Notes: generated by a model not told the origin, from the letters alone. Positions 1,901 to 42,217 are shown, counted from the stretch's first letter. The stretch: 64,000 nucleotides of DNA from a bacterium (GCA_011388275.1 DSAB01000122.1:15491-79490), one strand, 5' to 3'. Numbers and translations are program-made.

Positions 1901-1922
1901 TGGTTTGCAAGGCGGGGCATTC

Positions 1923-3302: not shown

Positions 3303-3367
3303 CCCGCTTTGGCTCAATATGCGCTTTTTACCGAGGCGATCCGGAATAGACCATTTATGGAGGTTCA

Positions 3368-14084: not shown

Positions 14085-14103
14085 CTGCTTTATAAAAGGA
14101 CTC

Positions 14104-22073: not shown

Positions 22074-22420
22074 GTGTCACCCCTTGAAGAAGTGCCGTTG
22101 TTCTTCACGGTTAAGGGGATCAGCAGCCCGGTGAAAAAACCGCCCCTTCAGTATCGGTGAGTGAGAGGATAAGGTTATCTTCATCATTTCGGATTCGTAT
22201 CAATTCCTTTATCGTCTAGAATAGTATACGATTACGGATTAACGAAAGCAAGCAATTTGTATCGGTATTCTGAAGCCGAATCCAAACAGGCGTTTTGGCA
22301 TCGTCCGGCGGCCAATAAAAATCTAAGGGAAATATTGGAGAATCGAATGATTTTTTAGTGAATTATATCACAAAAAAACTTGACAAAAATTTAAATTTAT
22401 TGTATATTTTCTCGGATTTA

Positions 22421-22438
22421 TTGTGAACGGTTTAACAA
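22421..22438. promoter_or_regulatory. Candidate Rex operator (TTGTGAACGGTTTAACAA) upstream of rex
   Basis: Matches the Rex box consensus TTGTGAA-N4-TTCACAA with one mismatch. Lies 50 nt upstream of the rex start in an AT-rich promoter region. Confidence 0.5.
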
Positions 22439-23120: not shown

Positions 23121-23133
23121 CCGGAGCCTTTTC

Positions 23134-25010: not shown

Positions 25011-25011
25011 T

Positions 25012-25806: not shown

Positions 25807-27092
25807 TGCGTGAAATCGTGGTTGAACCACTCTCCCGCGTGGAAGGGGAAGGCGGCATTACCGTCCAGCTGGACGGAAAGCGGATCAAGGATGTCCGTTT
25901 TGATATATTGGAAGGAACACGGCTTATCGAAACACTGGTGGTCGGAAAAACACCTCAGGAAGATGTGAGTATCGCCTGCCGAATCTGCGCGATCTGCACC
26001 CTTTCCCATCGGTATGCCGCGTTGAGGGGGCTGGAAAAGGCCCTGGGCATCGAGATACCTCCCAAGGCGCATCACATGCGCAGCCTCATGCATCTGGGCG
26101 AATGCCTGGAGAGCAACTCTCTTCACGTGTTCGTTCTGGCGCTGCCCGACTTTCTGGGTTATCCTTCGGCGATTGCCATGGCCGAGAAATACGGCAATGA
26201 GGTGACTCAGGCTCTGGCATTGAAGAAATTCGCCAATCACATCATGGAGGTGACCAGCGGCCGTATGATTCACGGCGAGAATCCGACCATAGGCGGATTC
26301 GGCCGGTATCCGGACCGGGAAGTTCTCCTGAACATCAAAAAGCAGGCCAGGGATTTCCTGGAATTCGCCGTGTACGGCACCAATCTTGTGGCCGGGCTGG
26401 ACATTCCTTCCTTTTTTGAGAAAGAAACCGTATTCATGTGCTGTGAGCCCGGAAATGAGTTCGGCCTCATGGGTGACTCGATTCGCATTTCCACCGGGGA
26501 GGTCGTGGACTGTAACGACTATAAAAAACTGACCAATGAGAAATTCTGTCCGCATTCGGCGGCCAAGCACTGTCTTTATAAAGGAAAACCATTTACGGTG
26601 GGGGCTCTCGCCCGCGTCAACAATCTTGGTGAGCGCCTGAAGGGCCAGGCCGGAAAACTGTTCAAAAAGCACTGGAATGATCGCTGGCTGAAAAATCCGA
26701 TCTACAACAACCACGCCCAGGCTGTTGAGATTGTATGGGCTCTCGAGCAGATCCCGGGAGTGGTCGATGATATCCTGAAAATCAAGGAGGATCCCGCTCT
26801 GGTCAAACCCGCCCGGACCGAAGGCGAAGGGGTCGGCGCGGTTGAGGCGCCCCGCGGGACTCTGTACCATCATTATCAAATCAAGGATGGTCTGATCGCG
26901 GACGCCAACTTTATCATCCCAACGGGTCAGAACCTTGAAGACATTGAGAAATACATGCGGCTGGCTGTTCAGGGGATGATCGACCAGGGCGCCGATGATG
27001 ACGCGATTCGTCTGCAGCTGGAAATCATCTGCCGTGCCTATGACCCCTGCATCAGCTGTTCGACCCATATGGTAAGGATTGAGCGTGTCTGA
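25806..27092 (+). CDS. [NiFe]-hydrogenase large (alpha) subunit, group 3b
   Basis: N-terminal RICAICTLSH (CxxC) and C-terminal DPCISCSTH (CxxC…H) Ni-Fe ligand motifs. The C-terminal extension after H is a substrate for the maturation protease. Confidence 0.85.
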   Translation: MREIVVEPLSRVEGEGGITVQLDGKRIKDVRFDILEGTRLIETLVVGKTPQEDVSIACRICAICTLSHRYAALRGLEKALGIEIPPKAHHMRSLMHLGECLESNSLHVFVLALPDFLGYPSAIAMAEKYGNEVTQALALKKFANHIMEVTSGRMIHGENPTIGGFGRYPDREVLLNIKKQARDFLEFAVYGTNLVAGLDIPSFFEKETVFMCCEPGNEFGLMGDSIRISTGEVVDCNDYKKLTNEKFCPHSAAKHCLYKGKPFTVGALARVNNLGERLKGQAGKLFKKHWNDRWLKNPIYNNHAQAVEIVWALEQIPGVVDDILKIKEDPALVKPARTEGEGVGAVEAPRGTLYHHYQIKDGLIADANFIIPTGQNLEDIEKYMRLAVQGMIDQGADDDAIRLQLEIICRAYDPCISCSTHMVRIERV

Positions 27093-27609
27093 AAATGATC
27101 TGGAAGGCGCCCTTAACCGGCTGGTTCCCCCGAAAAAATGCCTTGTCATCGGTCTGGGAAACGCCGACCGGGCCGACGACGGTCTGGGACTGATTATATC
27201 GGAAAAATTGAAGGCCCGTTTTCCAAGTCGGGCCTTTTCCGAAAGAGAATCTCCTCCCGAGAACATTGTTCTTGACCACCTGAATGATGAGAAAGTGAAA
27301 GGGTTTCTTTTTATCGATGCCATGGATTTCGGCGGCAGGCCGGGAACCTTCCGCATTTTTACATGGGATGACGCGTCCCGTTTCGTGCCCTCTCTTTCCA
27401 CTCATAAGGTGCCCATGACACTGATCATGTCCATTATAAATCAGCATGATAAAGTGCCTCTGCTCCTGGGAGTGCAGCCGGAGTCTGTTGAGCTGATGGG
27501 TGAATTGACCGAACCGGTAAAGCACACCCTGGTCCGCCTGGAGTCCATTCTGGAGCGATGGCTCGAACAGAACGAACAAGGCGAGAAGACTTCAAATGAG
27601 TCATTGTGA
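27079..27609 (+). CDS. Hydrogenase maturation endopeptidase (HoxW/HycI family)
   Basis: LVIGLGNADRADDGLG motif typical of hydrogenase maturation proteases. Follows the large subunit with a small overlap. Confidence 0.7.
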   Translation: MSVSENDLEGALNRLVPPKKCLVIGLGNADRADDGLGLIISEKLKARFPSRAFSERESPPENIVLDHLNDEKVKGFLFIDAMDFGGRPGTFRIFTWDDASRFVPSLSTHKVPMTLIMSIINQHDKVPLLLGVQPESVELMGELTEPVKHTLVRLESILERWLEQNEQGEKTSNESL

Positions 27610-27853: not shown

Positions 27854-27882
27854 TTGACAAATAATATCGCATTCTTTATATT
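27854..27882 (+). promoter_or_regulatory. Near-consensus sigma70-type promoter (TTGACA-17 nt-TATATT) for the second hydrogenase cluster
   Basis: TTGACA at 27854-27859, 17-nt spacer, TATATT at 27877-27882. It sits in a 506-nt AT-rich intergenic region about 230 nt upstream of the 28116 start. Confidence 0.5.
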
Positions 27883-27888
27883 TGTCAA
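27854..27888. repeat. Perfect 10-bp inverted repeat TTGACAAATA-N15-TATTTGTCAA overlapping the promoter
   Basis: Read directly from the sequence; the two arms are exact reverse complements. Confidence 0.6.
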
Positions 27889-28115
27889 AAGCTGATGGCG
27901 CGGCACGAATCCAAAGTCTGTGGGTGGTTATGCATTTCTCAAAAGGGATCATTCATATGGACACTATGCAGCATCATGAAAGCAACACCGTCTTTCAGCT
28001 TTTTTCCCATCTTTCTGGCAGGAAAAAGCGTTAATAATATGATCGGAGTCCGAAAAAGCCCCGGCTGATTCGGACTCTTTACTTTCGGGCCTTCAAAAAA
28101 AAGCAGATAATTTCT

Positions 28116-29120
28116 ATGGCAGAACGCTACTTTATCGGTAAAGTGCAATGGAGCACTCTTCTCGGTGGCTGGATGGAGAAATACCAGATTTTGGCGCCCC
28201 AGAAGCATGAAGGGGGACTTTTTCTGGAGCCCGTCAGCATGGAAAATCTGTCCACGATTGTCTATGATGCAGCGCGGGCCGTGCAGCCCCTGAAAGCCTT
28301 TCTGTTTCCGGCGCTGGAAGAGGTGACTGGAGAAAAGGCCGAGCCGGAAAAACCCTGGCTCTTTCTGGGAATCAAGGCGTGCGGCCTTTCGGCTCTGCCC
28401 ATTCTGGATCAGGCCTATGGCGGTGAATTCGCCGATCCCCATTATCAGAAACGGCGCCAGGAGAGTCTTATCGTCAGTTCGGATTGTTCGCAGCCGTGGG
28501 AGACCTGTTTCTGTACACTGATCGGCGGAAAGCCTTATCCCTCAGAAGGTTTCGATCTCAATCTTTCCAAAGTCTGGGATGGTTTTATCGTGGAGGCAGG
28601 CAGCGCACGGGGCAAGGCTCTGCTGGAGGGGCATGATGAAGTCCTGAAAGAAGTGGTGAAGGAGGAAGCGGAAGCACTCGACAAGATGCGCAAGGAGACC
28701 GTTTCAAAGATCGAAAAGCAGAACAAGGAGTACCGTCTGCCCGCCGATCTTCAAAAATTGATGGCGGGATCCTGGGAATCCGATGTATGGAAGGTTCATT
28801 CAGAAACCTGCGTGGAATGCGGTGCCTGCAACCATGCCTGTCCGACCTGCCACTGTTATTTCCTGGATGATGTGACCCGCAAAGAGTTTGTCAAGCTCAG
28901 AGGGTGGGACGCCTGTCAATATTCCGGATATGCGGTTACAGCCGGCGGAGGCACACCCAGACCCCATCTGTATGAACGGTTTCGCAATCGGTATTTCTGC
29001 AAGATAAAGTATCTCTTTGAAAACTACAACCGTCTCGGCTGCACGGGATGCGGCCGTTGCATCGAAGGATGTCAGGGACGCATCGATATGCGTGCTGCGC
29101 TGAACGATCTGACAAAATAA
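28116..29120 (+). CDS. Second sulfhydrogenase-beta/AsrA-like Fe-S subunit (paralog of 23134..24159)
   Basis: Same architecture and Cys motifs (CVECGACNHACPTCHCYFLDD; CTGCGRCIEGCQG). Confidence 0.7.
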   Translation: MAERYFIGKVQWSTLLGGWMEKYQILAPQKHEGGLFLEPVSMENLSTIVYDAARAVQPLKAFLFPALEEVTGEKAEPEKPWLFLGIKACGLSALPILDQAYGGEFADPHYQKRRQESLIVSSDCSQPWETCFCTLIGGKPYPSEGFDLNLSKVWDGFIVEAGSARGKALLEGHDEVLKEVVKEEAEALDKMRKETVSKIEKQNKEYRLPADLQKLMAGSWESDVWKVHSETCVECGACNHACPTCHCYFLDDVTRKEFVKLRGWDACQYSGYAVTAGGGTPRPHLYERFRNRYFCKIKYLFENYNRLGCTGCGRCIEGCQGRIDMRAALNDLTK

Positions 29121-29134
29121 GGGACCAATTTTCC

Positions 29135-29953
29135 ATGGGTCAGCCAAAGAATCCATATCAGCCGGTCAAAGCCGTTATTGAGAATATCATCGACGAAACT
29201 CCCGGGATCAAGACGTTTGTAATTAAACCTGAAGAGGCATTCGGTTTTCATTGCGGCCAGTTTGCCGAATTGACGGTGCCGGGGGTGGGGGAAGGGCCTT
29301 TTGCCATGTCGTCGCCCTGCCATAAACCCGAGATGCTGGAATTTACCATTCAAAATGTCGGTTACATGACCCAGCGGCTGCACAAGATGAAAAAGGGAGA
29401 TGTGGTGGGTGTTCGCGGTCCTTACGGCAACGGGTTCCCTCTGGAGAAGTATTACGGCAAGGAGGTGGTGCTGCTTATCGGAGGAGTGGGTTTTCCCCCT
29501 GCCCGTGCCTTGCTTTACAGCCTGCTTCATGAAAAGGATAAATTCAAGCGCCTTCTGATGTGTTACGGAGCCAGGACACCCCAGGATGTTGTGTACAAAT
29601 ATCAAATCGAAGATTTTCGCAAACAAATCGAACTCCATATGACGGTAGACAAGGCCGACGAGAGCTGGAAAGAGACGGAAGGCGTTGTCACTGTTCTGCT
29701 GGACAAAGTCAATTTTGATTTGAAAAATGCCGTGTCTGTGGTTATCGGTCCGCCGATCATGATGAAATTCGGGACTCTGAAACTCCTGGAAAAGGGTTTC
29801 AAACCCAGGGACATCTTTCTTTCCATGGAAAGAAAGATGTACTGCGGCATCGGACAGTGCCGCCATTGCATGATCGATCATCTATTCATCTGCAAGGACG
29901 GCCCTGTGTTCACTTATCAAGAGCTCAAGGACTTTCCTGACATTTGGGAATGA
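29135..29953 (+). CDS. Second sulfhydrogenase-gamma/AsrB-like FAD/NAD(P)-binding subunit with 2Fe-2S
   Basis: FNR-like domains (GEGPFAMSSP; LLIGGVGFPPARA). C-terminal CGIGQCRHCMIDHLFICKDG cluster. Confidence 0.7.
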   Translation: MGQPKNPYQPVKAVIENIIDETPGIKTFVIKPEEAFGFHCGQFAELTVPGVGEGPFAMSSPCHKPEMLEFTIQNVGYMTQRLHKMKKGDVVGVRGPYGNGFPLEKYYGKEVVLLIGGVGFPPARALLYSLLHEKDKFKRLLMCYGARTPQDVVYKYQIEDFRKQIELHMTVDKADESWKETEGVVTVLLDKVNFDLKNAVSVVIGPPIMMKFGTLKLLEKGFKPRDIFLSMERKMYCGIGQCRHCMIDHLFICKDGPVFTYQELKDFPDIWE

Positions 29954-30444
29954 GTATGGCAAAACGGCTATTCATCGATCTGGAAAAATGCCGCGAATGC
30001 GGCGAGTGTGAGGTTTCATGCAGTTATTTTTATCATCCCTTCAATGACGGGGTGATGTATCTGCGGGAACTGGCTGAATTCGCCACGACATGCCGTCACT
30101 GCGACGAAGCGCCTTGCGTCAAGAGCTGTCCCACGGACGCGCTGGAGAAGCTGGAAGACGGCATTCTGAAGCGGTATAACCTTCGCTGTGTTTCCTGTAA
30201 AAGCTGCAGCTATGCCTGCCCCTTCGGCACGATTTTGCCGGAACTTTTGCCTTATGCCGTGTCACGGTGTGATTTTTGTATTGGAAGGTTGAAAGAGGGT
30301 GAATCGCCTGTTTGTGTCGGAGGCTGTACTGAGGGCGCCGTCATGTACGGAGAATTCGAGCCGGATCAAAAAGAACATCGATTTTTGGTCGGAGAACATC
30401 TGGTCGTTCATTCAATTCCGTGGAAAAAGGAAGAATACGTATAG
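29950..30444 (+). CDS. Polyferredoxin-like 4Fe-4S subunit (HycB/MbhN-type electron transfer protein)
   Basis: Four Cys clusters (CRECGECEVSC; CRHCDEAPCVKSCP; CVSCKSCSYACP; CDFCIGRL…CVGGC). Start among the ATG/TTG codons at 29944-29956 is uncertain. Confidence 0.7.
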   Translation: MSMAKRLFIDLEKCRECGECEVSCSYFYHPFNDGVMYLRELAEFATTCRHCDEAPCVKSCPTDALEKLEDGILKRYNLRCVSCKSCSYACPFGTILPELLPYAVSRCDFCIGRLKEGESPVCVGGCTEGAVMYGEFEPDQKEHRFLVGEHLVVHSIPWKKEEYV

Positions 30445-30445
30445 T

Positions 30446-31372
30446 ATGAATGCTTATCTCGCTTACCTCGTGTTTCCGGGTTTCCTGTTTACGGCCGCTG
30501 CGGGCATGCTGGCCAGCTGGATCGACCGGAAATTGACGGCCCGGGTTCAGTGGCGCGTCGGGCCGCCGCTGCTGCAGCCTCTGTACGATTTCGTCAAGCT
30601 GCTGGGAAAAGAGACAATCGTTCCCAAAGGAAGCTCAAAGATCACTTTTCTGCTGGCTCCGGTTTTGGGACTGGTCGGAGTAACCTTTGTGTCCACCATG
30701 GTCTGGTCGGCCATGCTGTGGCCCGAAGGCGGATTTACGGGAGATCTGATTGTGGTTCTCTATTTCCTGATGGTTCCTTCACTGGCGGTTATTCTGGGGG
30801 CGTTCGCGTCCAAAAACCGGCTGGCTTCTCTGGGAGCGAGCCGGGAGATGAAGCTTATGCTGGCCGATGAACTTCCTTTTCTGCTGGCGGTTCTGGTAGT
30901 CATCATTCAATCGGGCGGCTCCCTGAAGCTCGGCCAGCTGATGACGTATCAGCAGAGCTACGGGATGATTCTCGGATCCGTTTCCGGGGTTCTGGCTGTT
31001 GTCGTGGCTGTTTTGACCATGCAGGCCAAGCTGACACTGGTTCCCTTTGACATTCCGGAAGCGGAGACAGAAATTATGGGCGGTGTTTTTGTGGAGTATT
31101 CAGGGCCTCCGCTGGCTGTTTTCAAGCTGACTCGAATGATGATGCTCATTACCATGCCTGCGGTTCTGACGCTGCTGTTTCTTGGAGGCGTGAAATTCGA
31201 AGGGTGGCATATTCTGTGGTCCCTGCTCAAGTTTTTCGTTCTGCTGCTTCTCATTACACTGATTCGCAACACCAGTCCGCGTGTTCGAATTGATCAGGCG
31301 GTACGATTCTTCTGGGGGCCGGTTACTGTTATCGGTATTGTAGCCGTTGTTTTGGCACTATTGGGGTTTTAA
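30446..31372 (+). CDS. NuoH/HycD/MbhM-like integral membrane subunit of a group-4 hydrogenase
   Basis: Polytopic. Conserved WRVGPP and PFD(I/L)PEAE(T/S)E motifs of the complex I subunit 1 family. Confidence 0.8.
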   Translation: MNAYLAYLVFPGFLFTAAAGMLASWIDRKLTARVQWRVGPPLLQPLYDFVKLLGKETIVPKGSSKITFLLAPVLGLVGVTFVSTMVWSAMLWPEGGFTGDLIVVLYFLMVPSLAVILGAFASKNRLASLGASREMKLMLADELPFLLAVLVVIIQSGGSLKLGQLMTYQQSYGMILGSVSGVLAVVVAVLTMQAKLTLVPFDIPEAETEIMGGVFVEYSGPPLAVFKLTRMMMLITMPAVLTLLFLGGVKFEGWHILWSLLKFFVLLLLITLIRNTSPRVRIDQAVRFFWGPVTVIGIVAVVLALLGF

Positions 31373-31376
31373 TCTC

Positions 31377-31802
31377 ATGGGAATTAAACTGAAAGCATTG
31401 ACTCGCTCACCGTGGGTTTATCATCTGTCTACGGGGAGCTGCAATAATTGCGACATCGAAATACTGGACTGTCTGACTCCGCGTTACGATCTGGAACGGT
31501 TCGGCATCGTTCTGGTAGGCAGTCCCAGGCATGCCGATGCTCTGCTTGTGACAGGAAACATGACGGCCAAGAACATACCCCGTGTCAAGAAAGTCTACGA
31601 GCAGATGCCGAAACCGGGAGTCGTCATCGCCGTGGGCACCTGCGCGCTGGGGCACGGCGTTTTCAACGGAAGTTATGTGATGCCCCACACCGTGGATGAG
31701 ATTCTTCCTGTGGACATCTACATTCCCGGATGTCCCATGAAACCGGAGGCTTTTATCGCCGGAGTGGCGAAGCTGCTGGCCGTACTGAGGCAGAAAGCCT
31801 AA
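31377..31802 (+). CDS. NuoB-like small subunit of a group-4 [NiFe]-hydrogenase (MbhJ/EchC/HycG type)
   Basis: GSCNNCDIE…G(S/T)CA…PGCP Cys pattern for the proximal 4Fe-4S cluster. Confidence 0.8.
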   Translation: MGIKLKALTRSPWVYHLSTGSCNNCDIEILDCLTPRYDLERFGIVLVGSPRHADALLVTGNMTAKNIPRVKKVYEQMPKPGVVIAVGTCALGHGVFNGSYVMPHTVDEILPVDIYIPGCPMKPEAFIAGVAKLLAVLRQKA

Positions 31803-31820
31803 AAAATAGAAGAGGATTGA

Positions 31821-32258
31821 ATGACCTGGGCAGAAATCGCGAAGCGCATCAAAAAGGAACGCGGCGACCAGATTCTGAAATGGTTTGAACACAATCCGAA
31901 GAGAATCTATGCGGATATCGATCCGGAAAATCTGCTGGATTTTGCGCGGTATCTTTTCAAGGATCTGAATGCCCGTTTTATTATTGCATCGGCTCTGGAC
32001 ACGCCCCGGGGGGGAGTGGAAATCATCTATCACTTCGATTTCCTTCAGCTTCCCCAGGTATTTTCCATACGCGTTTTTGTCAGGAAGCCGGAACTGGAAG
32101 TCGAATCCATTTCACCTGTAATCAAGGGCGCGGAATGGATCGAAAGGGAGATCGCCGAATTGCTGGGTATTACTTTCAGAAACCATCCGAATCCGATTCA
32201 TCTCATCCTGCCCAATGACTGGCCTGAGGGGAACTATCCCCTGAGGAGGGATCAATGA
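31821..32258 (+). CDS. NuoC-like (30-kDa) subunit of a group-4 hydrogenase (MbhK/EchD type)
   Basis: 145 aa with an NuoC-fold signature (E(R/K)E(I/V)xE(L/M)xGI). Position between the B-like and D-like subunits. Confidence 0.65.
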   Translation: MTWAEIAKRIKKERGDQILKWFEHNPKRIYADIDPENLLDFARYLFKDLNARFIIASALDTPRGGVEIIYHFDFLQLPQVFSIRVFVRKPELEVESISPVIKGAEWIEREIAELLGITFRNHPNPIHLILPNDWPEGNYPLRRDQ

Positions 32259-33439
32259 GCGAAATCATTCCCATTGGCCCTTATCATCCATTGCAGGAAG
32301 AGCCTGAATTTTTCAGACTGCACGTCGAAGGTGAAATCGTCAAGAAGCTGGAAATCGAGATCGGCTATAACCATCGCGGCATCGAAAAGCTGGCGGAATC
32401 CAAATCATGGGATCAGGTTGTCTTTCTGGTGGAAAGAATCTGCGGAATCTGTTCAACGAGCCATCCGGCTGCTTCCATCTGCGCCATGGAGGATCTGGGA
32501 GGGATCGAGGCTCCGGAGAGGGCTCAGTATATACGCACCGTCATCTGTGAACTGGAACGGGTTCATTCCCATATGCTCTGGCTGGGTCTGGCCGGTCATT
32601 TCATCGGATACAACACGGTCTGGATGTGGGTCTGGAAATACCGTGAAATCGTGTGCGACCTGCTGGACAAGATCACGGGAAACCGCCAAAGTTACGCCAT
32701 GTTCAAATGCGGCGGCGTCCGAAGGGATATTCTGGATGAGGATATGCTCTGGATACGCCAATCTTTGAACAAACTCAAGCCGGCTCTCGATCTGTTCAAG
32801 GGCGCGGTCATGGATGATCCGGTGATTCACGCGAGGACCAAGGGCGTCGGTGTTCTGACCAGGCAGCAGGCCATCGATTATTGCGTGGTCGGACCCACGG
32901 CCAGACCGTCCGGAGTGGCCATCGATGTGCGAAAAGACAATCCCTATTTCGCGTATGACTGGATCGATTGGGATATTGTCGTCTTGGAAGAAGGCGATGT
33001 GTTTTCCAAGACGGCTGTCCGAATTCTGGAAATGTATGAATCCATCAAGATCATCGAGCAGTGTCTTGACAAGATGAAGCCCGGCGTTATCGATCTGCAT
33101 GTCAAGGAGCTGCCCGCCGGAGAAGGCGTCGGCCGCGCGGAGGCGCCGAGGGGAGAGGTCTTCCACTACTGCATGAGCGACGGGTCCAATTTCCCCATGC
33201 GGTACAAGGTCCGGGCGCCCAGCTATACCAATATCTTTTCCAATGAAGCCGCCTGTGTGGGTCAGACTGTGGCCGATGCGGCTCTGGTGCTGGCCGCGGT
33301 GGATCCCTGTTATTGCTGCACGGAACGTTCCATCACCGTGAGAAACGATCGCGGAGAGGAAAATATTTTGACCGGCGGTGATCTCATCCGGCTTTCTCAT
33401 GAGAGAACCAAACAAATCAGAAAAGAATTGGGTGTATAA
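32255..33439 (+). CDS. Group-4 [NiFe]-hydrogenase large subunit (NuoD-like; MbhL/MbxL/EchE/HycE type)
   Basis: N-terminal ERICGICSTSH (RxCGxCxxxH) and C-terminal DPCYCCTER metal-ligand motifs. 394 aa. Confidence 0.8.
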   Translation: MSEIIPIGPYHPLQEEPEFFRLHVEGEIVKKLEIEIGYNHRGIEKLAESKSWDQVVFLVERICGICSTSHPAASICAMEDLGGIEAPERAQYIRTVICELERVHSHMLWLGLAGHFIGYNTVWMWVWKYREIVCDLLDKITGNRQSYAMFKCGGVRRDILDEDMLWIRQSLNKLKPALDLFKGAVMDDPVIHARTKGVGVLTRQQAIDYCVVGPTARPSGVAIDVRKDNPYFAYDWIDWDIVVLEEGDVFSKTAVRILEMYESIKIIEQCLDKMKPGVIDLHVKELPAGEGVGRAEAPRGEVFHYCMSDGSNFPMRYKVRAPSYTNIFSNEAACVGQTVADAALVLAAVDPCYCCTERSITVRNDRGEENILTGGDLIRLSHERTKQIRKELGV

Positions 33440-35250
33440 TGAATCCGCTTCTTTATCCAATCGTCATTCCATTCATAGCCGGCCTGCTTCTTTATGTGAT
33501 ACCCAGAAGGGTGAAGGGAATTCACGAGGCAGCAGCCCTGCTGGTGAGCGCGGGTACCTTTGGACTGACTGTGTGGCTGTTTTTGCAGAAACCCATGGAA
33601 TGGACGACACAGAACAGCCTCATTCTTCGGCTGGATGATCTGAGCGCGTTCATTCTGCTGGCTGCGGGGCTCTTCGGATTTCTGATTGCCCTGTATTCAG
33701 TGATCTATATGAAGGATCGGAATCAGCGTTCCATGTATTATGGATCCCTGCTGCTGACTCTGGGAGCCACATGCGGCGCGCTGATGTCCAATCATTTGAT
33801 CCTGCTGCTGATCTTCTGGGGATTTCTGGGCATCACACTCTATCTGCTAATTCAAAGCGGCGGTGACGGGGCCGCACCCGCGGCAAAGAAGAGCCTTATC
33901 ATCGTCGGCGGAAGCGACGCGCTCCTGCTTCTGGGAATTGTTTTCATCTATTCCCTGACAGGAACGTTCGAAATGGATAAAATACTGCTTTCCTTCAATA
34001 ACGGACTGGTGACCTGGGTTTTTGTTCTTCTGGCCTTAAGTGCTTTCGCGAAAGCCGGCTCTTTACCGCTTCATACATGGATCCCTGATATGGCAATGCA
34101 CACCCCGATACCCGCCACGGCACTCATGCCCGCGGCATTGGATAAACTGCTGGGGATCTACCTGTTGGGCCGTATGGTTCTGAATCTTTTTCAGATGACC
34201 GGTGCAATGAATCTTTTTCTGATGATCGTGGGCGCTGTTACAATAATCACCGCCGTCATGATGGCTCTTGTTCAGCATGATCTCAGAAAGCTGCTGGCTT
34301 ATCACGCGGTTTCACAGGTCGGATATATGGTGCTGGGTATCGGAACAGGAACAGTAATAGGCATTGCAGGCGGTCTTTTCCATATGTTGAACAATACGCT
34401 GTATAAGACCTGTCTTTTCCTGACCGGAGGATCCGTCAAATATCGGACCGGCAGCACGGATCTGGATGAGTTGGGTGGACTGGCCCGGTTCATGCCGATG
34501 ACCTTTTTATCCTTCATATTTGCCGCTCTGGCGATTTCGGGTATTCCGCCTCTCAATGGTTTCGTATCCAAGTGGATGGTCTATCAGGGCTTGGTGGAAT
34601 TGGGACGGGAAGGCGATAAACTGTGGGTAGTCTGGCTCCTTGCGGCGATGTTCGGCAGCGGCCTGACACTGGCCAGCTTCATGAAATTGACCCATACCGT
34701 GTTTCTGGGTGACAGTGCGAAAAGGGCGGGCAGAAAGATCAAAGAAGTCGGATTTATTATGTGGCTTCCCACGGTTATCCTGGCGGTTCTCTGTGTTCTT
34801 TTCGGCGTATTCGCCATTCAGGTTCCGCTGAAACACTTTATCATTCCCGCCATGGGCTCGGATATCGAATATATAGGATCCTGGTCGCCGGGTCTGGCCA
34901 CAGTGATGATTCTCATCGGAATCGGCATCGGTTTTCTGATTTATCTGGCAGGAAATCTCAAAGGCATTCGTGAAGCCGACAGTTTCATCGGCGGCGAAGA
35001 ACTGGACAGTGAGACGCGGGTGACCGGGACGGGATTTTACAACACTATTCGTGAGATGGGAATGTTCTCCAGAATTTACCGGTGGGCGGAAGATAAATGG
35101 TTCGATGTTTACGATCTGGGTAATCATCTGTTTTCCGGGATCGGAGGCGTGCTTAGCAAGGCGCACACCGGTGTTCTCAATCTTTATGTTTTCTGGTTTG
35201 TTTTTGGACTCATTGTTTTACTTATCGTACTGATGGGAGGCAGTCTATGA
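33439..35250 (+). CDS. MrpA/NuoL-like antiporter-type membrane subunit (MbhH-like)
   Basis: 603 aa polytopic. Conserved antiporter-module motifs (WIPDAM…, GxxG(L/I)F…H). Confidence 0.8.
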   Translation: MNPLLYPIVIPFIAGLLLYVIPRRVKGIHEAAALLVSAGTFGLTVWLFLQKPMEWTTQNSLILRLDDLSAFILLAAGLFGFLIALYSVIYMKDRNQRSMYYGSLLLTLGATCGALMSNHLILLLIFWGFLGITLYLLIQSGGDGAAPAAKKSLIIVGGSDALLLLGIVFIYSLTGTFEMDKILLSFNNGLVTWVFVLLALSAFAKAGSLPLHTWIPDMAMHTPIPATALMPAALDKLLGIYLLGRMVLNLFQMTGAMNLFLMIVGAVTIITAVMMALVQHDLRKLLAYHAVSQVGYMVLGIGTGTVIGIAGGLFHMLNNTLYKTCLFLTGGSVKYRTGSTDLDELGGLARFMPMTFLSFIFAALAISGIPPLNGFVSKWMVYQGLVELGREGDKLWVVWLLAAMFGSGLTLASFMKLTHTVFLGDSAKRAGRKIKEVGFIMWLPTVILAVLCVLFGVFAIQVPLKHFIIPAMGSDIEYIGSWSPGLATVMILIGIGIGFLIYLAGNLKGIREADSFIGGEELDSETRVTGTGFYNTIREMGMFSRIYRWAEDKWFDVYDLGNHLFSGIGGVLSKAHTGVLNLYVFWFVFGLIVLLIVLMGGSL

Positions 35251-35780
35251 TGACCACTCTCATCCTCCTGACCGTTCTCATGATACTTGGCGCCATTGTG
35301 GCCCTGGAGAGCAGGGACTTGCTTTCCGGAATCATCTCTCTTGGAATCATCGGATTCGCTCTGACCATCATTTTTCTGGTTTTGCAGGCCCCGGACCTGG
35401 CTATCGTTCAGATTATCATCGAGACGCTTACCCTGGTCATTCTGATCGCCGCGGTGCTTAAAACCACACGGAAAGAGGTGAATGATCCCGTCAACAAACG
35501 GAAAGTTCTGTTGTGGAGTGCAGGATTGATCGGTGTCGCCGTGTTTCTGCTGGCGGCCTGGCGGGCTCTTCATCATATGCCCGAATTCGGTCATCTCACT
35601 CTCCGTATGGCGCAGGCGTATGTTGATCAGGGCGCGAATCTCACGGGAGCCGGAAATCTGGTGGCAGCGGTGATTCTTGACTTCAGAGGATATGATACTC
35701 TGGGTGAGGCGACTGTCCTGTTTACGTCCGTGGCCGGTGTGGTATCGGTTCTGCGAAAGGTGGGGAGGAAACACGCATGA
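35247..35780 (+). CDS. Mrp-type small membrane subunit (MnhB/MbhD-E-like)
   Basis: 177 aa, 4-5 TM helices, inside the Mrp module. Stop/start overlap with its neighbours. Confidence 0.55.
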   Translation: MMTTLILLTVLMILGAIVALESRDLLSGIISLGIIGFALTIIFLVLQAPDLAIVQIIIETLTLVILIAAVLKTTRKEVNDPVNKRKVLLWSAGLIGVAVFLLAAWRALHHMPEFGHLTLRMAQAYVDQGANLTGAGNLVAAVILDFRGYDTLGEATVLFTSVAGVVSVLRKVGRKHA

Positions 35781-36211
35781 AGGGCATGACACTGATTGTC
35801 AAGGAGATCACCCGGCTGATGGTTCCGTCCATCATATTATTGGGTGTCTACGTCGTTCTGCACGGCCACCTGACTCCGGGGGGAGGATTCGCAGGAGGTG
35901 TTTTGATCGCGGGTTCTTTCGCTTTGATGGTTTTGGCTTATGGATCCGAAGAAACAAAACGCGAAATCAAGATGTGGCATGCCACGTTTGGCGAAAGCAT
36001 GGGCATATTCCTGTTCTGGTTTTTAGCTCTGATGGGTGTCATTCAGGGAACCCATTTTTTCACCAACATTCTGGCCAAGGGTCGGACAGGCGACTTGTTC
36101 AGCGCGGGAATCATTCCGCTGTGTAATATCGCCATCGGTATCGAGGTGGCGGCGGCTCTTTTCGCCATCTTCTTTACCATGGCTGTTATGAGGTTGGGAG
36201 AGAAGTTATGA
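35777..36211 (+). CDS. MnhB-domain membrane subunit (MrpB-like)
   Basis: HGHLTPGGGFAGG motif characteristic of the MnhB/MrpB domain. Confidence 0.7.
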   Translation: MKGMTLIVKEITRLMVPSIILLGVYVVLHGHLTPGGGFAGGVLIAGSFALMVLAYGSEETKREIKMWHATFGESMGIFLFWFLALMGVIQGTHFFTNILAKGRTGDLFSAGIIPLCNIAIGIEVAAALFAIFFTMAVMRLGEKL

Positions 36212-36546
36212 TCCTATTCATTCTGGCAATTCTCCTTTTTCTGATCGGCCTGTACGGCGTGCTGGTGAAGCGAAACCTGATTAAAATGATTATCGGGTTG
36301 ATGATCATGGAATATGCTGTGAATCTTATTTTCACTCTTGTGGGTTACCGTTCGGGAGGAACCGCTCCAATCGTCACCGATTCGATCAGCAGCGTGCTCT
36401 ATGTCGATCCCCTGCCCCAGGCCCTGGTTCTCACCGCGATCGTCATTGGTTTGGGGACCACGGCGCTGGCCGTATCATTTGCTGTTCGGATTTTCGAAAA
36501 ATACGACACTTTCGATGTACGAAAAATCAGGAAGTTACGCGGATGA
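36208..36546 (+). CDS. MrpC/NuoK-like membrane subunit
   Basis: 112 aa, three TM helices, NuoK-like. Confidence 0.65.
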   Translation: MILFILAILLFLIGLYGVLVKRNLIKMIIGLMIMEYAVNLIFTLVGYRSGGTAPIVTDSISSVLYVDPLPQALVLTAIVIGLGTTALAVSFAVRIFEKYDTFDVRKIRKLRG

Positions 36547-38042
36547 ACTTCATACCTTTATTTGTGATTGTACCGCTGGGTGCCGCATTTCTAATGCCCG
36601 TTGTTTCCAGACTTTGGAAAGGCATGTCTGATGTGTTGGGAAACCTGGCCGCCTTGTTTTTGATGGTTTGGTCTTTCGCGGCGCTGCAGATGGGTCATGA
36701 GACCACGGTTTTCTATGCAGGTGGATGGGAACCTGTCGCATCCATTCCTATTGGAATAGCCATGGTCATGGACGGGCTCACGGTTTTCATGCTGATCATC
36801 ATCAATGTGATCGGATTCGCGGTTACCCTGTACTCCGTCAACTACATGAACCATTATACGGACAAGGCTAAATACTATACTTTGTTTCTGCTTATGATGG
36901 CCGGACTCAACGGCGTCGTTTTGGCCGGTGACTTGTTCAACCTGTTTGTGTTTCTTGAAATATCGGCGATCGCTTCCTATTCGCTTGTGGCCTTCGGCAT
37001 CGGATCTGAAGAACTGGAGGCTTCCTTTAAATATCAAATACTCGGTGGAACCGCCTCGACTCTGATTTTAATGGGGATCGCTTTTTTCTATCATATGACG
37101 GGGACACTCAATCTGGCCGATGCTTCCACCGTAATCCAGCAACTGGGCACTCATCCGGGAATTATTTTCGTATCCATCCTTTTTCTGGTTGGCTTCAGCC
37201 TGAAGGCGGCGCTGATACCGTTTCATGCCTGGCTTCCGGATGCTCATCCTTCCGCCCCGGCTCCCATTTCGGCCATGCTTTCGGGAGTGGTGATCAAGGT
37301 CCTCGGTGTTTATGCCCTGATAAGAATCTTTTTCAATGTCTTCGGCATTACAGCGATGCCTTCTGTATTGACGATTTTCATCGTTTTGGGATCGGTTTCC
37401 ATGGTGGCCGGAGCGTTTCTGGCGATCTCTCAAAGTGATTTCAAGAGAATGCTGGCCTATTCATCCATCAGCCAGATAGGGTATGTGCTGTTTGCTTTGG
37501 GCCTCGGGACACCACTGGGAATTCTTGGTGCCATGTTTCATCTGATCAACCATGCTGCGTTCAAATCGCTGCTATTTTTAAATTCAGGGGCGGTTGTATA
37601 CCGAACAAATACTCGGGATCTGGACCAGCTGGGTGGAATTTCACAAAAAATGCCGGTCACCGGTATCACCTCGCTTCTGGGTTCACTCTCAATCAGCGGA
37701 TTGCCCCCTTTTGGAGGGTTCTGGAGCAAGCTGATCATTATCATGGCAGCCGTTGAATCCGGTCATTTTGCGCTGGCCGGCGTGGCTGTTTTTACGAGTA
37801 TTGTTACTCTGGCCTATTACATGAAACTTCAGAAAGAGGCCTTTTACGGAGCATTGAAAGCCTCTTTTGGAAAACTGAAAGAAGCTCCTTTTCTGATGAG
37901 TCTGTCCGTGATTCTGCTGGCGATTGTGGTAACCGGAATGGGTCTTTTATTGATTCCCGAATTCAAATCAGTCATTCTGGACCCCGCCGTGAAGATCATC
38001 AGCGGAGGATTGAACTATTCAAAACTGGTTCTGGGAGGATGA
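36543..38042 (+). CDS. MrpD/NuoN-M-like antiporter-type membrane subunit
   Basis: 499 aa polytopic, antiporter-module signature helices. Confidence 0.8.
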   Translation: MNFIPLFVIVPLGAAFLMPVVSRLWKGMSDVLGNLAALFLMVWSFAALQMGHETTVFYAGGWEPVASIPIGIAMVMDGLTVFMLIIINVIGFAVTLYSVNYMNHYTDKAKYYTLFLLMMAGLNGVVLAGDLFNLFVFLEISAIASYSLVAFGIGSEELEASFKYQILGGTASTLILMGIAFFYHMTGTLNLADASTVIQQLGTHPGIIFVSILFLVGFSLKAALIPFHAWLPDAHPSAPAPISAMLSGVVIKVLGVYALIRIFFNVFGITAMPSVLTIFIVLGSVSMVAGAFLAISQSDFKRMLAYSSISQIGYVLFALGLGTPLGILGAMFHLINHAAFKSLLFLNSGAVVYRTNTRDLDQLGGISQKMPVTGITSLLGSLSISGLPPFGGFWSKLIIIMAAVESGHFALAGVAVFTSIVTLAYYMKLQKEAFYGALKASFGKLKEAPFLMSLSVILLAIVVTGMGLLLIPEFKSVILDPAVKIISGGLNYSKLVLGG

Positions 38043-38043
38043 G

Positions 38044-38529
38044 GTGAAAAAGGCAATTTTGATTCTTTTCATTTTTACTTTATGGCTCCTGCTTACCTGG
38101 AATGCGAGCTGGCAGAGCCTTGTTGCCGGCGGGGTGACTGCCCTGATGGTGGGCCTGATTTTCGGAAATCTGGCGGTAACAGCTCCCATGAAAGTGATAC
38201 AGCCGCAGAGATGGTTCTGGCTTCTGCTCTATATCCCGATATTCATATGGGAGATGGCCAAGGCCAACTTCGATGTGGCTTACCGGGTTTTGCATCCGAA
38301 AATGCCTATACACCCGGGTATCGTCAAAGTCAAAACACGGCTTAAATCACCTCTGGGTATCGCTTTTCTGGCCAATTCCATTACGTTAACACCGGGTACG
38401 TTTACGATTGATTTAAAAGATGAATATCTGTATATACACTGCATCAATGTAAGGCATCAAAAACTGGATGAAGCGACAAAGGATATTGTATCCCGGTTCG
38501 AAAAACTGTTGATTAAAATATTTGATTGA
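38044..38529 (+). CDS. MrpE/MnhE-like subunit
   Basis: 161 aa with N-terminal TM helices. Position in the Mrp gene order. Confidence 0.55.
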   Translation: MKKAILILFIFTLWLLLTWNASWQSLVAGGVTALMVGLIFGNLAVTAPMKVIQPQRWFWLLLYIPIFIWEMAKANFDVAYRVLHPKMPIHPGIVKVKTRLKSPLGIAFLANSITLTPGTFTIDLKDEYLYIHCINVRHQKLDEATKDIVSRFEKLLIKIFD

Positions 38530-38536
38530 GAGCGCC

Positions 38537-38791
38537 ATGAACATTTATTTCATCATACTGGTTGCCTGCTGTTTCGCGTGCCTGATCAGGGCCTGGATTG
38601 GAAAGTCGATTCCTGACCGGATGGTCGCGATCGATATTATGGGTACGCTGGCTGTCGGGATGACGGCTCTCCTGGCCGTTATCACGGAAAGAAATTTTCT
38701 GATCGATGTTGCCCTTGCCTGGATTTTCCTCAGCTTCATTGGAACCCTCGCATTGGCAAAGTATCTGGTACACAAAACGTTGGATGAGTGA
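38537..38791 (+). CDS. MrpF/MnhF-like subunit
   Basis: About 84 aa, three TM helices. ATG at 38537 preferred over the TTG at 38522. Confidence 0.55.
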   Translation: MNIYFIILVACCFACLIRAWIGKSIPDRMVAIDIMGTLAVGMTALLAVITERNFLIDVALAWIFLSFIGTLALAKYLVHKTLDE

Positions 38792-38794
38792 AAA

Positions 38795-39142
38795 ATGGCA
38801 TGGAATGAATGGATCGGGTTCATTATCATCGGGTTCGGAGTTGCTTTTGACGCGCTGGGCTGTCTGGGGCTGCTTCGTTTTCCCGATATTTACAATCGTC
38901 TGCAGGGAGCGACCAAGTGCGTGACATTCGGGACCTGCGGCATTCTTTTTGGAATTTTTGTTATGAACGGATTCACCGGATTCGGAATCAAGGCGCTGGT
39001 GGCCATTCCCTTCGTCCTGTTGACATCTCCGGTGGGGGCGCACGCTCTGGCACGCGGAGCTCATATTTTCGGTGTGCCGCTCTGGGAAAAGAGCGTGGTT
39101 GATCACTACAAACAAGACAGGAAGGATAAACCGAGACTGTAA
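38795..39142 (+). CDS. MrpG/MnhG-like subunit
   Basis: 115 aa, TM helices. Position after the MrpF-like gene. Confidence 0.55.
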   Translation: MAWNEWIGFIIIGFGVAFDALGCLGLLRFPDIYNRLQGATKCVTFGTCGILFGIFVMNGFTGFGIKALVAIPFVLLTSPVGAHALARGAHIFGVPLWEKSVVDHYKQDRKDKPRL

Positions 39143-39153
39143 ACGGGTCGACA

Positions 39154-39774
39154 ATGAAATATCCAAAACTGAGAGAATTAGGCGAAGCCGTCAAATCACT
39201 TTTTTCGAAGCCGTATACAACCAAATTCCCCAAAGTGGCGCATGAGGGATTCGACGGATTCCGGGGGAAACCCGAATTTTTTGATGAATACTGTGTGGGA
39301 TGCGGAGCCTGTACCCAGGTATGTCCGGCCGGCGCGATCGCCGTGATCGATCCTGAAATTATACGGAAAGACAATAAAAGCGCTCCCAAAAGAAAATTGG
39401 AACTGCGCTATGATATGTGCAATTTTTGCGGCAACTGCGAGGCGCATTGCATCACCGAGAAGGGCGTTCAGCTCACAAAAAAATACGATCTTGCCTTGAT
39501 GGACAGGAAACTGGCTGTTGAAACGATAGAGAAAGAACTGGTTGTTTGTGAGATGTGCGGAGGCACCGTAACCACCATTGATCATCTGCGCTGGCTGGTT
39601 AAAAAGCTTGGAACACTGGCGTACGGAAACCCGACACTGCTGCTCGTATCGCAGAGGGAATTGATTCCGGTTCAATCCGGAAGAAAGGGCGAAGAACTTC
39701 GCAGGCCGGATATATTGAAAGTCATGTGCCCCAAATGCAGGCATAAAGTGATGGTCAAAGATATTTGGGGATGA
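39154..39774 (+). CDS. NuoI-like 2x[4Fe-4S] ferredoxin subunit of the group-4 hydrogenase (MbhN/EchF type)
   Basis: CVGCGACTQVCP and CNFCGNCEAHC motifs. 206 aa. Last gene of the cluster. Confidence 0.75.
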   Translation: MKYPKLRELGEAVKSLFSKPYTTKFPKVAHEGFDGFRGKPEFFDEYCVGCGACTQVCPAGAIAVIDPEIIRKDNKSAPKRKLELRYDMCNFCGNCEAHCITEKGVQLTKKYDLALMDRKLAVETIEKELVVCEMCGGTVTTIDHLRWLVKKLGTLAYGNPTLLLVSQRELIPVQSGRKGEELRRPDILKVMCPKCRHKVMVKDIWG

Positions 39775-39820
39775 TGTAACGTTCAATTTGTCTGTTTTAT
39801 CCTAATCACCCGGAACTCAG

Positions 39821-39858
39821 GGCTGTCCGTTTAACATGAGGACAGCCTTTTTATTTTT
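39821..39858 (+). terminator. Rho-independent terminator after the group-4 hydrogenase/Mrp cluster
   Basis: GGCTGTCC-(11-nt loop)-GGACAGCC followed by TTTTTATTTTT. Confidence 0.75.
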
Positions 39859-40140
39859 ATTGGATGACGTTAAAGACACTTATAAGAGTTGTCATCCCCG
39901 GGAAACCGGGGATCCAGGTTTGTATAAATAATTCATGCAATATTTTGGACCGATCATACCGAACTTCGTATTATCTCCTATTATCATCATTAAAAGCATC
40001 CGGAATAATGGAATCAAATCGATTTGTCCGGGATGACGCATCGACCGGCAATTAATGAAAAAACAAAGAATCCTGACAAGCCGCTTCAATCCGTGAGGAG
40101 ATAAAAAAATGACTTGACTTTTAAAAATATATCAATATAT

Positions 40141-40186
40141 TAGTATACGTACACTGACAGTTTGGTGTTAATAATAGTATACGTAG
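40141..40186 (+). repeat. 11-bp direct repeat TAGTATACGTA x2 (34-bp spacing) in the leader of the MerR-like gene
   Basis: TAGTATACGTAC at 40141-40152 and TAGTATACGTAG at 40175-40186. They lie just downstream of a TTGACT-16 nt-TATATT promoter-like element (40114-40141). Confidence 0.55.
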
Positions 40187-40196
40187 AGGTGGTCCT

Positions 40197-40940
40197 GTGA
40201 AGAAAAAACTGTTGATGTTAAACGAGTTACTCGAAAAGATCGACCTTTCAGAAGAGGATCTTGACAAGTGGCTGGAGCTCAATCTCATTGTGCCGGCTGG
40301 ATACACCGATGATGAGGTTCCGGTTTACTATGCTGAAACAATTGAAAAGGTTAAAAAAATTCAAAAGCTCATCGAACTGGGCTATGCACCGGAAGACGTG
40401 CAGAAGATTGAGAAAAAAGTCGGAATGCCCGGAGAGGGGATGGATTCCTCAGAAAAAAAGAAGAAGGGTCAGTATCTGACCGTCGGGAATCTCGCTGAAC
40501 GCGTCGGAGTCAGTACAAGAACCATTAAACACTGGGAGGATAAAGGCATAATCGAGCCCGACACTCGAAGTGAAGGCGGATTCCGGCTCTATTCCGAAAC
40601 CTATGTGTACCTGTGCCAATTAATCAAGGATTTGCAGCTTTTTGGATACTCCCTGGAAGAGATCAAGACTGTATCGGATTATTTCAGGGATTTTAAATCG
40701 CTTCAGGAAAATTTCGATCATGTCCCGGATACGGAGATAGAACATAAAATCCAGGCCATGTTCAGAGAGATCGATTATCTGAACAAGAAAATGGTTTCAT
40801 TCAAAGATGGAATTCAGCGGTGGGAGGATCTGCTGAAGAAGAAACGCAAAGAATTACTCTCTCTTCAGAACCGGAATGAAAAGAGAAGAAAAGAAGAAAC
40901 AGTAAAAACAGTAAAAACATCCAAAAAGAAAAACCAGTAA
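40197..40940 (+). CDS. MerR-family transcriptional regulator with an extra N-terminal domain and coiled-coil, Lys/Glu-rich C-terminus
   Basis: MerR HTH (YLTVGNLAERVGVSTRTIKHWEDKGII) at aa about 92-120. GTG start with GAGGTGG RBS. Confidence 0.65.
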   Translation: MKKKLLMLNELLEKIDLSEEDLDKWLELNLIVPAGYTDDEVPVYYAETIEKVKKIQKLIELGYAPEDVQKIEKKVGMPGEGMDSSEKKKKGQYLTVGNLAERVGVSTRTIKHWEDKGIIEPDTRSEGGFRLYSETYVYLCQLIKDLQLFGYSLEEIKTVSDYFRDFKSLQENFDHVPDTEIEHKIQAMFREIDYLNKKMVSFKDGIQRWEDLLKKKRKELLSLQNRNEKRRKEETVKTVKTSKKKNQ

Positions 40941-40962
40941 AAAGTATAAGAGAGGTAATAAG

Positions 40963-42207: not shown

Positions 42208-42217
42208 GGAGGCCCAC

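Follow-up and report, generated by a model that had tools for sequence, protein, structure and literature searches.

Gene content and organization of the hun locus

We analyzed a 64,000-nt stretch of bacterial DNA (GCA_011388275.1 DSAB01000122.1:15491-79490; hereafter the window, with positions counted from its first nucleotide) with respect to a gene cluster for a group 4 [NiFe] hydrogenase complex bound to the membrane, which had been described in an earlier note made from the sequence alone. The cluster occupies positions 28116–39774 and consists of 16 consecutive genes on the plus strand, designated hunA–hunP (Table 1), all lying where the earlier note had placed them. The junctions between the genes, with the most plausible start codons, range from −4 to +18 nt; seven of them are 4-nt overlaps of the ATGA type. 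Pfam families were assigned to all 16 products with E-values from 1e-11 to 1e-72, and the domains matched the subunits named in the note; the uninterrupted cluster with overlapping stop and start codons was therefore confirmed. Minor corrections concern the starts of hunB (29135), hunC (29950), and hunN, which probably starts at its first ATG (38537), the open reading frame (ORF) itself opening at 38522 with TTG.

Both signals claimed for the borders of the cluster—its own promoter and a strong terminator—were also found. The promoter-like site is of the sigma-70 type, and its hexamers were kept in the closest relatives (L001 and L003). The terminator has a G+C-rich stem; the automatic terminator scan allows loops of no more than 8 nt and hence passes over it. 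The promoter hexamers sit inside a 10-bp inverted repeat, TTGACAAATA(N15)TATTTGTCAA (27854–27888); this repeat, TTGACAAATA/TATTTGTCAA, differs from the Rex box and could be an operator for another regulator. The leader of hunA is about 230 nt long. Its part at 27958–28090 holds a 25-codon ORF (27958–28035) and, directly before the hunA start, a hairpin, GAGTCCGAA...TTCGGACTC, with a T-rich run behind it, which may represent an attenuator. This feature had no Rfam match and was not kept in L001, L003, or L004; the Rfam scan of the whole window revealed a single tRNA, with no rRNA and nothing in the hunA leader.

Table 1. Features of the hun locus and of the adjacent regulatory and maturation genes
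Feature	Position	Strand	Characteristics
Rex operators (two), near-consensus	22356–22373 and 22421–22438		upstream of rex
rex, hunR-type	22488–23120	+	PF06971 + PF02629; heads the group 3b operon directly upstream of hun
HycI-type hydrogenase maturation endopeptidase	27079–27609	+	Pfam HycI; only one in the window
Promoter-like site, TTGACA-17-TATATT	27854–27882	+	11/12 matches, sigma-70-type; −35 and −10 hexamers kept in L001 and L003
hunA, Fe-S subunit, sulfhydrogenase beta/AsrA-like, 334 aa	28116–29120	+	Pfam Fer4_22; PDB 9nez_B
hunB, FAD/NAD(P)-binding [2Fe-2S] subunit, sulfhydrogenase gamma/AsrB-like, 272 aa	29135–29953	+	Pfam FAD_binding_6 + NAD_binding_1 + DHODB_Fe-S_bind; PDB 9nez_C
hunC, 16-Cys four-cluster ferredoxin-type connector, CooF/HycB-like, 164 aa	29950–30444	+	Pfam Fer4_11
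hunD, NuoH/MbhM-like membrane subunit	30446–31372	+	Pfam NADHdh, E = 1.9e-67
hunE, NuoB-like small subunit with proximal [4Fe-4S] cluster	31377–31802	+	Pfam Oxidored_q6; 4 Cys kept
hunF, NuoC-like subunit	31821–32258	+	Pfam Complex1_30kDa
hunG, [NiFe] large subunit, 394 aa	32255–33439	+	Pfam Complex1_49kDa + NiFeSe_Hases; L1/L2 motifs
hunH, antiporter-like subunit, 603 aa, MbsH'/NuoL-like	33439–35250	+	Pfam Proton_antipo_M
hunI, fused MbhD + MbhE-like subunit	35247–35780	+	Pfam MbhD + MbhE
hunJ, MnhB/MrpB-like subunit	35777–36211	+	Pfam MnhB
hunK, MrpC/NuoK-like subunit	36208–36546	+	Pfam Oxidored_q2
hunL, antiporter-like subunit, 499 aa, MrpD/MbhH-like	36543–38042	+	Pfam Proton_antipo_M
hunM, MrpE-like subunit	38044–38529	+	Pfam MNHE
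hunN, MrpF-like subunit	38537–38791	+	Pfam MrpF_PhaF; start probable
hunO, MrpG-like subunit	38795–39142	+	Pfam PhaG_MnhG
hunP, NuoI/HycF-like 2x[4Fe-4S] subunit, 206 aa, with C-terminal extension	39154–39774	+	Pfam; conserved Cys
Intrinsic terminator	39820–39858	+	10-bp stem, 11-nt loop, T-run; fold z = −2.6

Identification as the Hun operon

The best Pfam matches of the 16 proteins were, gene for gene and in identical order, the entries of Table S5 of Glass et al. (bioRxiv 10.1101/536078; later Environ Microbiol), which lists one Pfam family per gene for hunA–P. In that work, a 16-subunit complex named 'Hun' was defined from metagenome-assembled genomes (MAGs) of Atribacteria and Firmicutes and was reported also for Omnitrophica, Elusimicrobia, Bacteroidetes, and cultured Kosmotoga. 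HunG of the window carries both signature motifs given there: CGIC in L1 (RICGICSTSH) and CYCC in L2 (DPCYCCTER). The cluster at 28116–39774 is almost certainly the hun operon, sharing with it the 16 genes, their order, the Pfam domain of each product, and the CGIC...CYCC signature; the phyla reported for Hun also overlap those of the window's relatives (Omnitrophota, Elusimicrobiota, and Bacteroidota). The position of the associated Rex-type gene differs. In Atribacteria, the Rex-type gene was listed as hunR beside hunA, whereas in the window a complete group 3b hydrogenase operon and a HycI-type gene lie between rex and hunA.

The same architecture was termed 'Mbh-Mrp-oxidoreductase type' in a paper on Elusimicrobia, was described as an 'enigmatic' group 4 hydrogenase with cooF, asrA, and asrB in a paper on Saganbacteria, and was booked as 'group 4g Mbh linked to Mrp' in papers on Ace Lake MAGs. 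According to Glass et al., HydDB assigns HunG to group 4g, yet it is distant from other 4g sequences. The novelty implied by the earlier note was thus overstated: the same 16-gene operon had been named Hun in 2019–2021 from metagenomes, and anaerobic bacteria carry it widely. The note would have been refuted by a large subunit from a well-characterized clade with a known donor; HunG appears to fall outside the biochemically characterized clades and remained under every NCBIfam equivalog cut-off. HunA and HunB did not reach any such cut-off either. The window operon is one more member of a named but biochemically uncharacterized family, and the locus adds only another instance to it, save for its juxtaposition with a Rex-controlled group 3b hydrogenase.

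Conservation among relatives

Relatives of HunG were collected by scanning one genome per GTDB species, with more than 585 species-level genomes among the matches listed; the best 80 of these (60–88% identity) were taken with their flanks and searched by tblastn with all window proteins. The hunA–P order recurred throughout these 80 relatives, which belong to the phyla named by Glass et al.; the nearest HunG sequences were 83–88% identical. The earlier note had allowed for the beta/gamma pair not being kept with the membrane module in related genomes. It is kept: hunA, hunB, and hunC were found 5' of hunG in 61 of the 62 loci having at least 4.6 kb of upstream flank, and these loci span at least eight phyla, including Omnitrophota, Planctomycetota, Elusimicrobiota, and Bacteroidota. 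All nine downstream genes were present in 41 of the 48 loci with at least 7.5 kb of downstream sequence; the misses mostly concerned the short MrpB-like gene.

Pairwise identities of the input and connector proteins followed those of HunG (r = 0.86 for HunA, 0.87 for HunB, 0.79 for HunC, and 0.91 for HunP). HunB proteins were at least 44% identical to each other but only 32–41% identical to the gamma subunit of the resident group 3b enzyme. In the window itself, HunA and HunB shared 30% and 37% identity, respectively, with the genuine beta and gamma subunits of the 3b enzyme, the genes of which lie 4 kb upstream. This synteny, together with the correlations and the HunB identities, indicates that the input module was inherited together with the hydrogenase core rather than borrowed from the neighboring 3b operon.

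Several loci departed from the common arrangement. In a Candidatus Auribacterota MAG (L071, 10001–12681), hunABCDEFG was followed directly by hunP and the gene of a HycI-type protease; Mrp or antiporter-like genes were absent from the 10 kb downstream. Seven loci (L020, L027, L033, L038, L039, L042, and L061) contained an extra MrpD-like gene between hunG and hunH, with 30–34% identity to HunL, and therefore encode three antiporter-like subunits. In a Nitrospirota MAG (L006, 3136–6954), a 3.8-kb insertion separated hunB from hunC; its ORFs of 153, 668, and 310 aa had no Pfam match except for an N-terminal methylation (pilin-like) motif. An insertion of a molybdopterin protein between hunB and hunC, reported by others, was considered and rejected for our set, as a large gap occurs solely in L006 and the ORFs inserted there lack molybdopterin domains. 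Directly upstream of hun in L004 (approximately 1000–3600), a distant second group 4-like cluster was found (NuoH, NuoB, and NuoD; 29–35% identity).

Catalytic core, membrane arm, and maturation

Among proteins of known structure, HunG was closest to MbhL of the Pyrococcus furiosus membrane-bound hydrogenase (MBH; 6cfw_L, 283 bits), followed by HycE (7z0s_E, 269 bits), Nqo4 (210 bits), and the large subunit of MBS, the sulfane sulfur reductase bound to the membrane (193 bits). The cysteines C63, C66, C352, C354, and C355 of HunG were invariant in the 80 relatives, and the four cysteines of HunE were conserved as well. The earlier note had offered a ferredoxin:NAD(P)+ oxidoreductase of the Mbx type as an alternative; this Mbx/MBS assignment was rejected on account of the intact [NiFe] cysteines and the lower MBS score.

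Both antiporter-like subunits aligned well with known ones: HunH end to end with MbsH' (6u8y_X) and NuoL (4he8_L), and HunL over its full length with MbhH (6cfw_H, 285 bits).

HunG ends in a 36-aa C-terminal extension after the L2 motif, which is presumably cleaved off. The only HycI-type protease encoded in the window lies upstream of hunA and is a candidate for this processing. In about 14 related loci (L016, L017, L018, L021, L023, L030, etc.), a HycI-type gene was found after hunP, its product sharing 26–34% identity with that of the window; this position suggests a protease dedicated to the C-terminal extension of HunG. Apart from the HycI-type protease, hyp maturation genes were not found among the annotated proteins of the window.

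Input module and iron-sulfur connectors

The claim that the first two genes of the cluster encode true homologues of the sulfhydrogenase beta and gamma subunits was well supported: HunA and HunB matched the full length of the corresponding subunits of P. furiosus sulfhydrogenase I (9nez_B, E = 1.7e-44, and 9nez_C, E = 1.6e-46, respectively), with ShyB/HydB and AsrB/ShyC/HydG, respectively, as the best NCBIfam matches. Fifteen cysteines of HunA (62 sequences) and the four [2Fe-2S] cysteines of HunB (68 sequences) were 100% conserved. The HunB motifs GGxGxxP, RGPYG, and GExPFxxSS were at least 90% conserved among the same 68 sequences. Identification of the pair as part of an AsrABC sulfite reductase was rejected: AsrC is missing, and both proteins scored below the family cut-offs (HunA, 117 bits against 323; HunB, 226 against 289; TIGR02910/02911).

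HunC belongs to the HycB/CooF/ArrB connector family. Its 16 cysteines are enough for four clusters, and its structural matches were ArrB, HycB (7z0s_B), and HycB3/4 of the hydrogen-dependent carbon dioxide reductase (HDCR). HunP was nearest to HycF among the complex I-type NuoI homologues. Beyond the eight cysteines of its two [4Fe-4S] clusters, its C-terminal extension (residues 132–195) contains four more in a CxxC...CxxC arrangement, 98–100% conserved in 47 sequences; these may form a zinc or further metal site, to which HunC perhaps docks.

Judging by these similarities, the complex is predicted to be a mosaic of a sulfhydrogenase-type input, formate hydrogenlyase (FHL)-type connectors, an active Mbh/HycE-type hydrogenase, and an MBS-like Mrp arm with two pumps.

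Regulation and the upstream group 3b hydrogenase

As the earlier note had indicated, a group 3b hydrogenase is encoded just upstream of hun. Its beta, gamma, delta, and alpha genes occupy 23134–27092 and, together with rex and the HycI-type protease gene, form the region 22488–27609; rex and its two Rex boxes lie ahead of the 3b operon, approximately 5 kb upstream of hunA. The rex-3b-HycI genes and hun constitute a 17.5-kb hydrogenase island of 22 genes. A 3b operon likewise precedes hunA in L018. We failed to detect a terminator-like site between the HycI-type gene and the hun promoter; therefore, read-through into hun under Rex control is possible.

Rex boxes were searched for in 480 nt around the hunA start of 61 related loci, with the consensus TTGTGAAnnnnTTCACAA and a dinucleotide-shuffle control. 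With at most one mismatch to TTGTGAAnnnnTTCACAA, 16 sites were observed in 16 of the 61 loci (0.01 expected); with at most two, the numbers were 25 sites in 23 loci (0.26 expected). A rex gene adjoins hun in about 16 related loci. This enrichment of Rex boxes before hunA, along with the adjacent rex genes, suggests that Hun is commonly under NADH/NAD+ control. Such control fits a role in reductant disposal and says nothing on the identity of the donor.

Proposed function of the Hun complex

On balance, and with modest confidence, we regard Hun as a reversible, ion-coupled NAD(P)H:H+ oxidoreductase, a reading based on protein homology. It is favored because the nucleotide-binding subunit is conserved, because the wiring is FHL-like, and because MBH takes ferredoxin without such a module. 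In the FHL of Escherichia coli, the HycB/HycF layout joins formate dehydrogenase to the hydrogenase, so that the substrate-oxidizing enzyme occupies the position equivalent to HunAB; MBH oxidizes ferredoxin without a beta/gamma-type module. As far as is known, all characterized homologues of HunB (HydG/ShyC, AsrB, PyrK, NfnA) use NAD(P)(H).

Our inferences on how the subunits assemble, which electron donor they use, which way the reaction runs, and what its ion stoichiometry is are as follows. The input module would consist of HunB, with FAD, the pyridine-nucleotide site, and a [2Fe-2S] cluster, and HunA, with several Fe-S clusters, the two being homologues of the gamma/beta pair that binds NADPH in soluble sulfhydrogenase. 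The wire would be formed by HunC—a four-cluster ferredoxin of the HycB/CooF type—and the HycF/NuoI-type HunP with its two [4Fe-4S] clusters. In the catalytic module, HunE would carry the proximal cluster and HunF together with HunG would hold the [NiFe] site, while NuoH-like HunD would dock the module on the membrane. The ion-translocating arm would comprise antiporter-like HunH and HunL and the small Mrp subunits HunI, J, K, M, N, and O. Electrons would pass from the FAD of HunB to its [2Fe-2S] cluster and through the clusters of HunA to HunC, HunP, HunE, and finally the [NiFe] center of HunG. At the membrane interface with HunD, the redox chemistry of this site would be coupled, via HunH, HunL, and the small Mrp subunits, to the movement of ions, the reaction being NAD(P)H + H+ <-> NAD(P)+ + H2 with coupled Na+/H+ movement. 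At the very low H2 levels of sediments, disposal of NAD(P)H as H2 would cost little energy or none, or would yield a small gain; at higher H2, the ion gradient would push the reaction, or the reaction would reverse to H2 uptake and NAD(P)+ reduction. Ferredoxin may additionally feed the same Fe-S wire.

A number of points weigh against an NAD(P)H-linked function. Hydrogen production from NAD(P)H is endergonic at standard state (−320 vs. −414 mV); therefore, low H2, consumption of ion-motive force, or operation in the uptake direction is needed. The enlarged, MBS-like arm with two pumps, if not operating in reverse, better suits a stronger donor, e.g., ferredoxin. In the window, no Rex box with up to two mismatches was found directly before hunA, only a TTCACAA half-site. 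Rex boxes are also no proof of NADH use, since in C. bescii Rex controls the ferredoxin-dependent Ech hydrogenase as well. The literature searched yielded no biochemical or transcriptomic results for Hun or for a [NiFe] group 4 enzyme of Kosmotoga. Glass et al. (bioRxiv 10.1101/536078) and the authors of the Ace Lake MAG papers assumed reduced ferredoxin as the donor.

Several of these points would be accommodated by a ferredoxin-only enzyme of the Mbh type, in which ferredoxin delivers electrons to HunABC or HunP, H2 is formed at HunG, the arm exports Na+/H+, and the NAD(P) site of HunB is vestigial or regulatory. Besides having been predicted in the works just mentioned, agreeing with the two-pump arm, and being compatible with Rex control, as the case of Ech illustrates, such a function is in line with the ferredoxin-dependent MbhL being the closest solved large subunit and with a 2-oxoacid:ferredoxin oxidoreductase being encoded nearby (14035–16777). 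It nevertheless appears rather unlikely to us. That HunB keeps its FAD and NAD(P) motifs to 90% or more in at least eight phyla is unexpected for a vestigial site; MBH needs neither beta/gamma nor HycB-like subunits, so that the three further subunits and their roughly 10 cofactors would be superfluous; and an analogy with AsrAB gives little help, AsrB-type proteins being pyridine-nucleotide flavoproteins.

The same architecture could also serve a dedicated energy-conserving uptake hydrogenase, oxidizing H2 at HunG and reducing NAD(P)+ at HunB, with the drop of about 94 mV driving ion export. It would provide NAD(P)H and ion-motive force to H2-utilizing anaerobes, e.g., Omnitrophota with the Wood–Ljungdahl pathway. 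Sulfhydrogenase I of P. furiosus, to which the homologous beta and gamma subunits belong, is believed to run from H2 to NADPH. Rex, however, releases its targets when NADH is high, and derepression under this condition suits an enzyme that consumes NADH, not one that produces it. Some hun-carrying MAGs were predicted to be acetogens in published MAG papers, but most carriers were described as fermenters (Glass et al., bioRxiv 10.1101/536078; a MAG paper), and we consider a dedicated uptake function improbable. A sulfur-linked enzyme, with HunAB as a sulfur/polysulfide or sulfite reductase module in an MBS/Mbx-like complex, is highly improbable: HunA and HunB do match the AsrA and AsrB profiles, such a role was once proposed for the sulfhydrogenase beta subunit or AsrAB, and the membrane arm resembles that of MBS, but an AsrC/siroheme gene is missing from the cluster and from its borders, HunG—in contrast to MBS—retains an intact, invariant set of [NiFe] ligands, and the MBS large subunit scores below MbhL and HycE.

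Returning to the NAD(P)H:H+ oxidoreductase, a more specific picture may be drawn, which we hold only tentatively: Hun could be a 'complex I that reduces protons', its input module recruited independently of NuoEFG and the whole switched on through Rex when NADH accumulates. To our knowledge, biochemical demonstration of an NAD(P)H-coupled group 4 hydrogenase would be a first.

Other genes of the window and significance of the operon

Past the terminator, at 40197–43648, genes of a MerR-family regulator, a DUF6051 protein, and a B12-binding radical SAM protein were found, with their own promoter-like site (40114–40141) and no evident link to hun. A BadF/BcrA-type CoA-enzyme activase of 1020 aa is encoded at 7405–10467; together with the 2-oxoacid:ferredoxin oxidoreductase, it marks an anaerobic, ferredoxin-generating fermentative metabolism of the host. 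Three ORFs of 1011 aa (18274–21309, minus strand), 432 aa (10504–11802, plus strand), and 388 aa (50008–51174, plus strand) had no Pfam match at E <= 1e-6; the first of them adjoins genes of a response regulator and a histidine kinase-type protein.

The hun type of operon is abundant, as seen from the more than 585 species-level genomes among the matches listed, and occurs in many candidate phyla of sediments and aquifers. In MAG studies, it routinely appears under the label of a ferredoxin-dependent 'group 4g Mbh'. If HunAB couples Hun to NAD(P)H, metabolic reconstructions would need revising with regard to NADH rebalancing, H2 release, and energy conserved. Hun would then provide a second, independent example of a nucleotide-oxidizing module grafted onto the Mbh/complex I scaffold and represent a new bioenergetic reaction, which could explain the disposal of NADH as H2 in many uncultured anaerobes. 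It is the identity of the donor, a matter that can be approached by experiment in cultured Kosmotoga, and not the window locus itself, that makes the operon interesting.

Comparison with known systems

The MBH of P. furiosus (6CFW)—a ferredoxin-dependent, Mrp-linked enzyme of group 4d—resembles Hun in that its [NiFe] large subunit is intact, both CxxC pairs included. Its MbhH resembles HunL over the full length, and small subunits of the MbhD/E, MnhB, and MrpC/E/F/G types are common to both complexes. However, MBH consists of 14 subunits with a single antiporter-like one, whereas Hun has a second (HunH), a HycF-like NuoI subunit, and the extra cytoplasmic HunABC. In the number of antiporter-like subunits, Hun is closer to MBS/Mbx of P. 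furiosus (6U8Y), which also has two, HunH aligning with MbsH'. In MBS, which reduces polysulfide, the [NiFe] cysteines have been lost; HunG, in contrast, keeps all of them and reaches only 193 bits against MbsL.

With the FHL of E. coli (7Z0S; group 4a) and the formate and CO hydrogenases of Thermococcus (group 4b), Hun shares the logic of an input enzyme followed by a HycB/CooF-type protein, a HycF-type protein, and the small and large subunits; group 4b enzymes carry an Mrp module as well. The input of the 4a and 4b enzymes is a molybdopterin formate dehydrogenase or a carbon monoxide dehydrogenase, genes of which were found neither in nor beside the hun cluster, while the input of Hun is a flavin/Fe-S beta-gamma pair. 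This pair has its full-length homologues, with the cofactor motifs kept, in the beta and gamma subunits of P. furiosus sulfhydrogenase I (9NEZ; group 3b). There, the partner is the soluble delta/alpha pair; the partner of HunAB is a membrane-bound group 4 hydrogenase, with NuoB/NuoD-type subunits encoded adjacently.

Respiratory complex I, like Hun, combines a core of NuoB/C/D/H/I/K/L/M-type subunits with an input of the pyridine-nucleotide type at the far end of the Fe-S wire. The NuoEFG input of complex I is unrelated to HunAB, and the place of its quinone pocket is taken in Hun by a [NiFe] center predicted to reduce protons.

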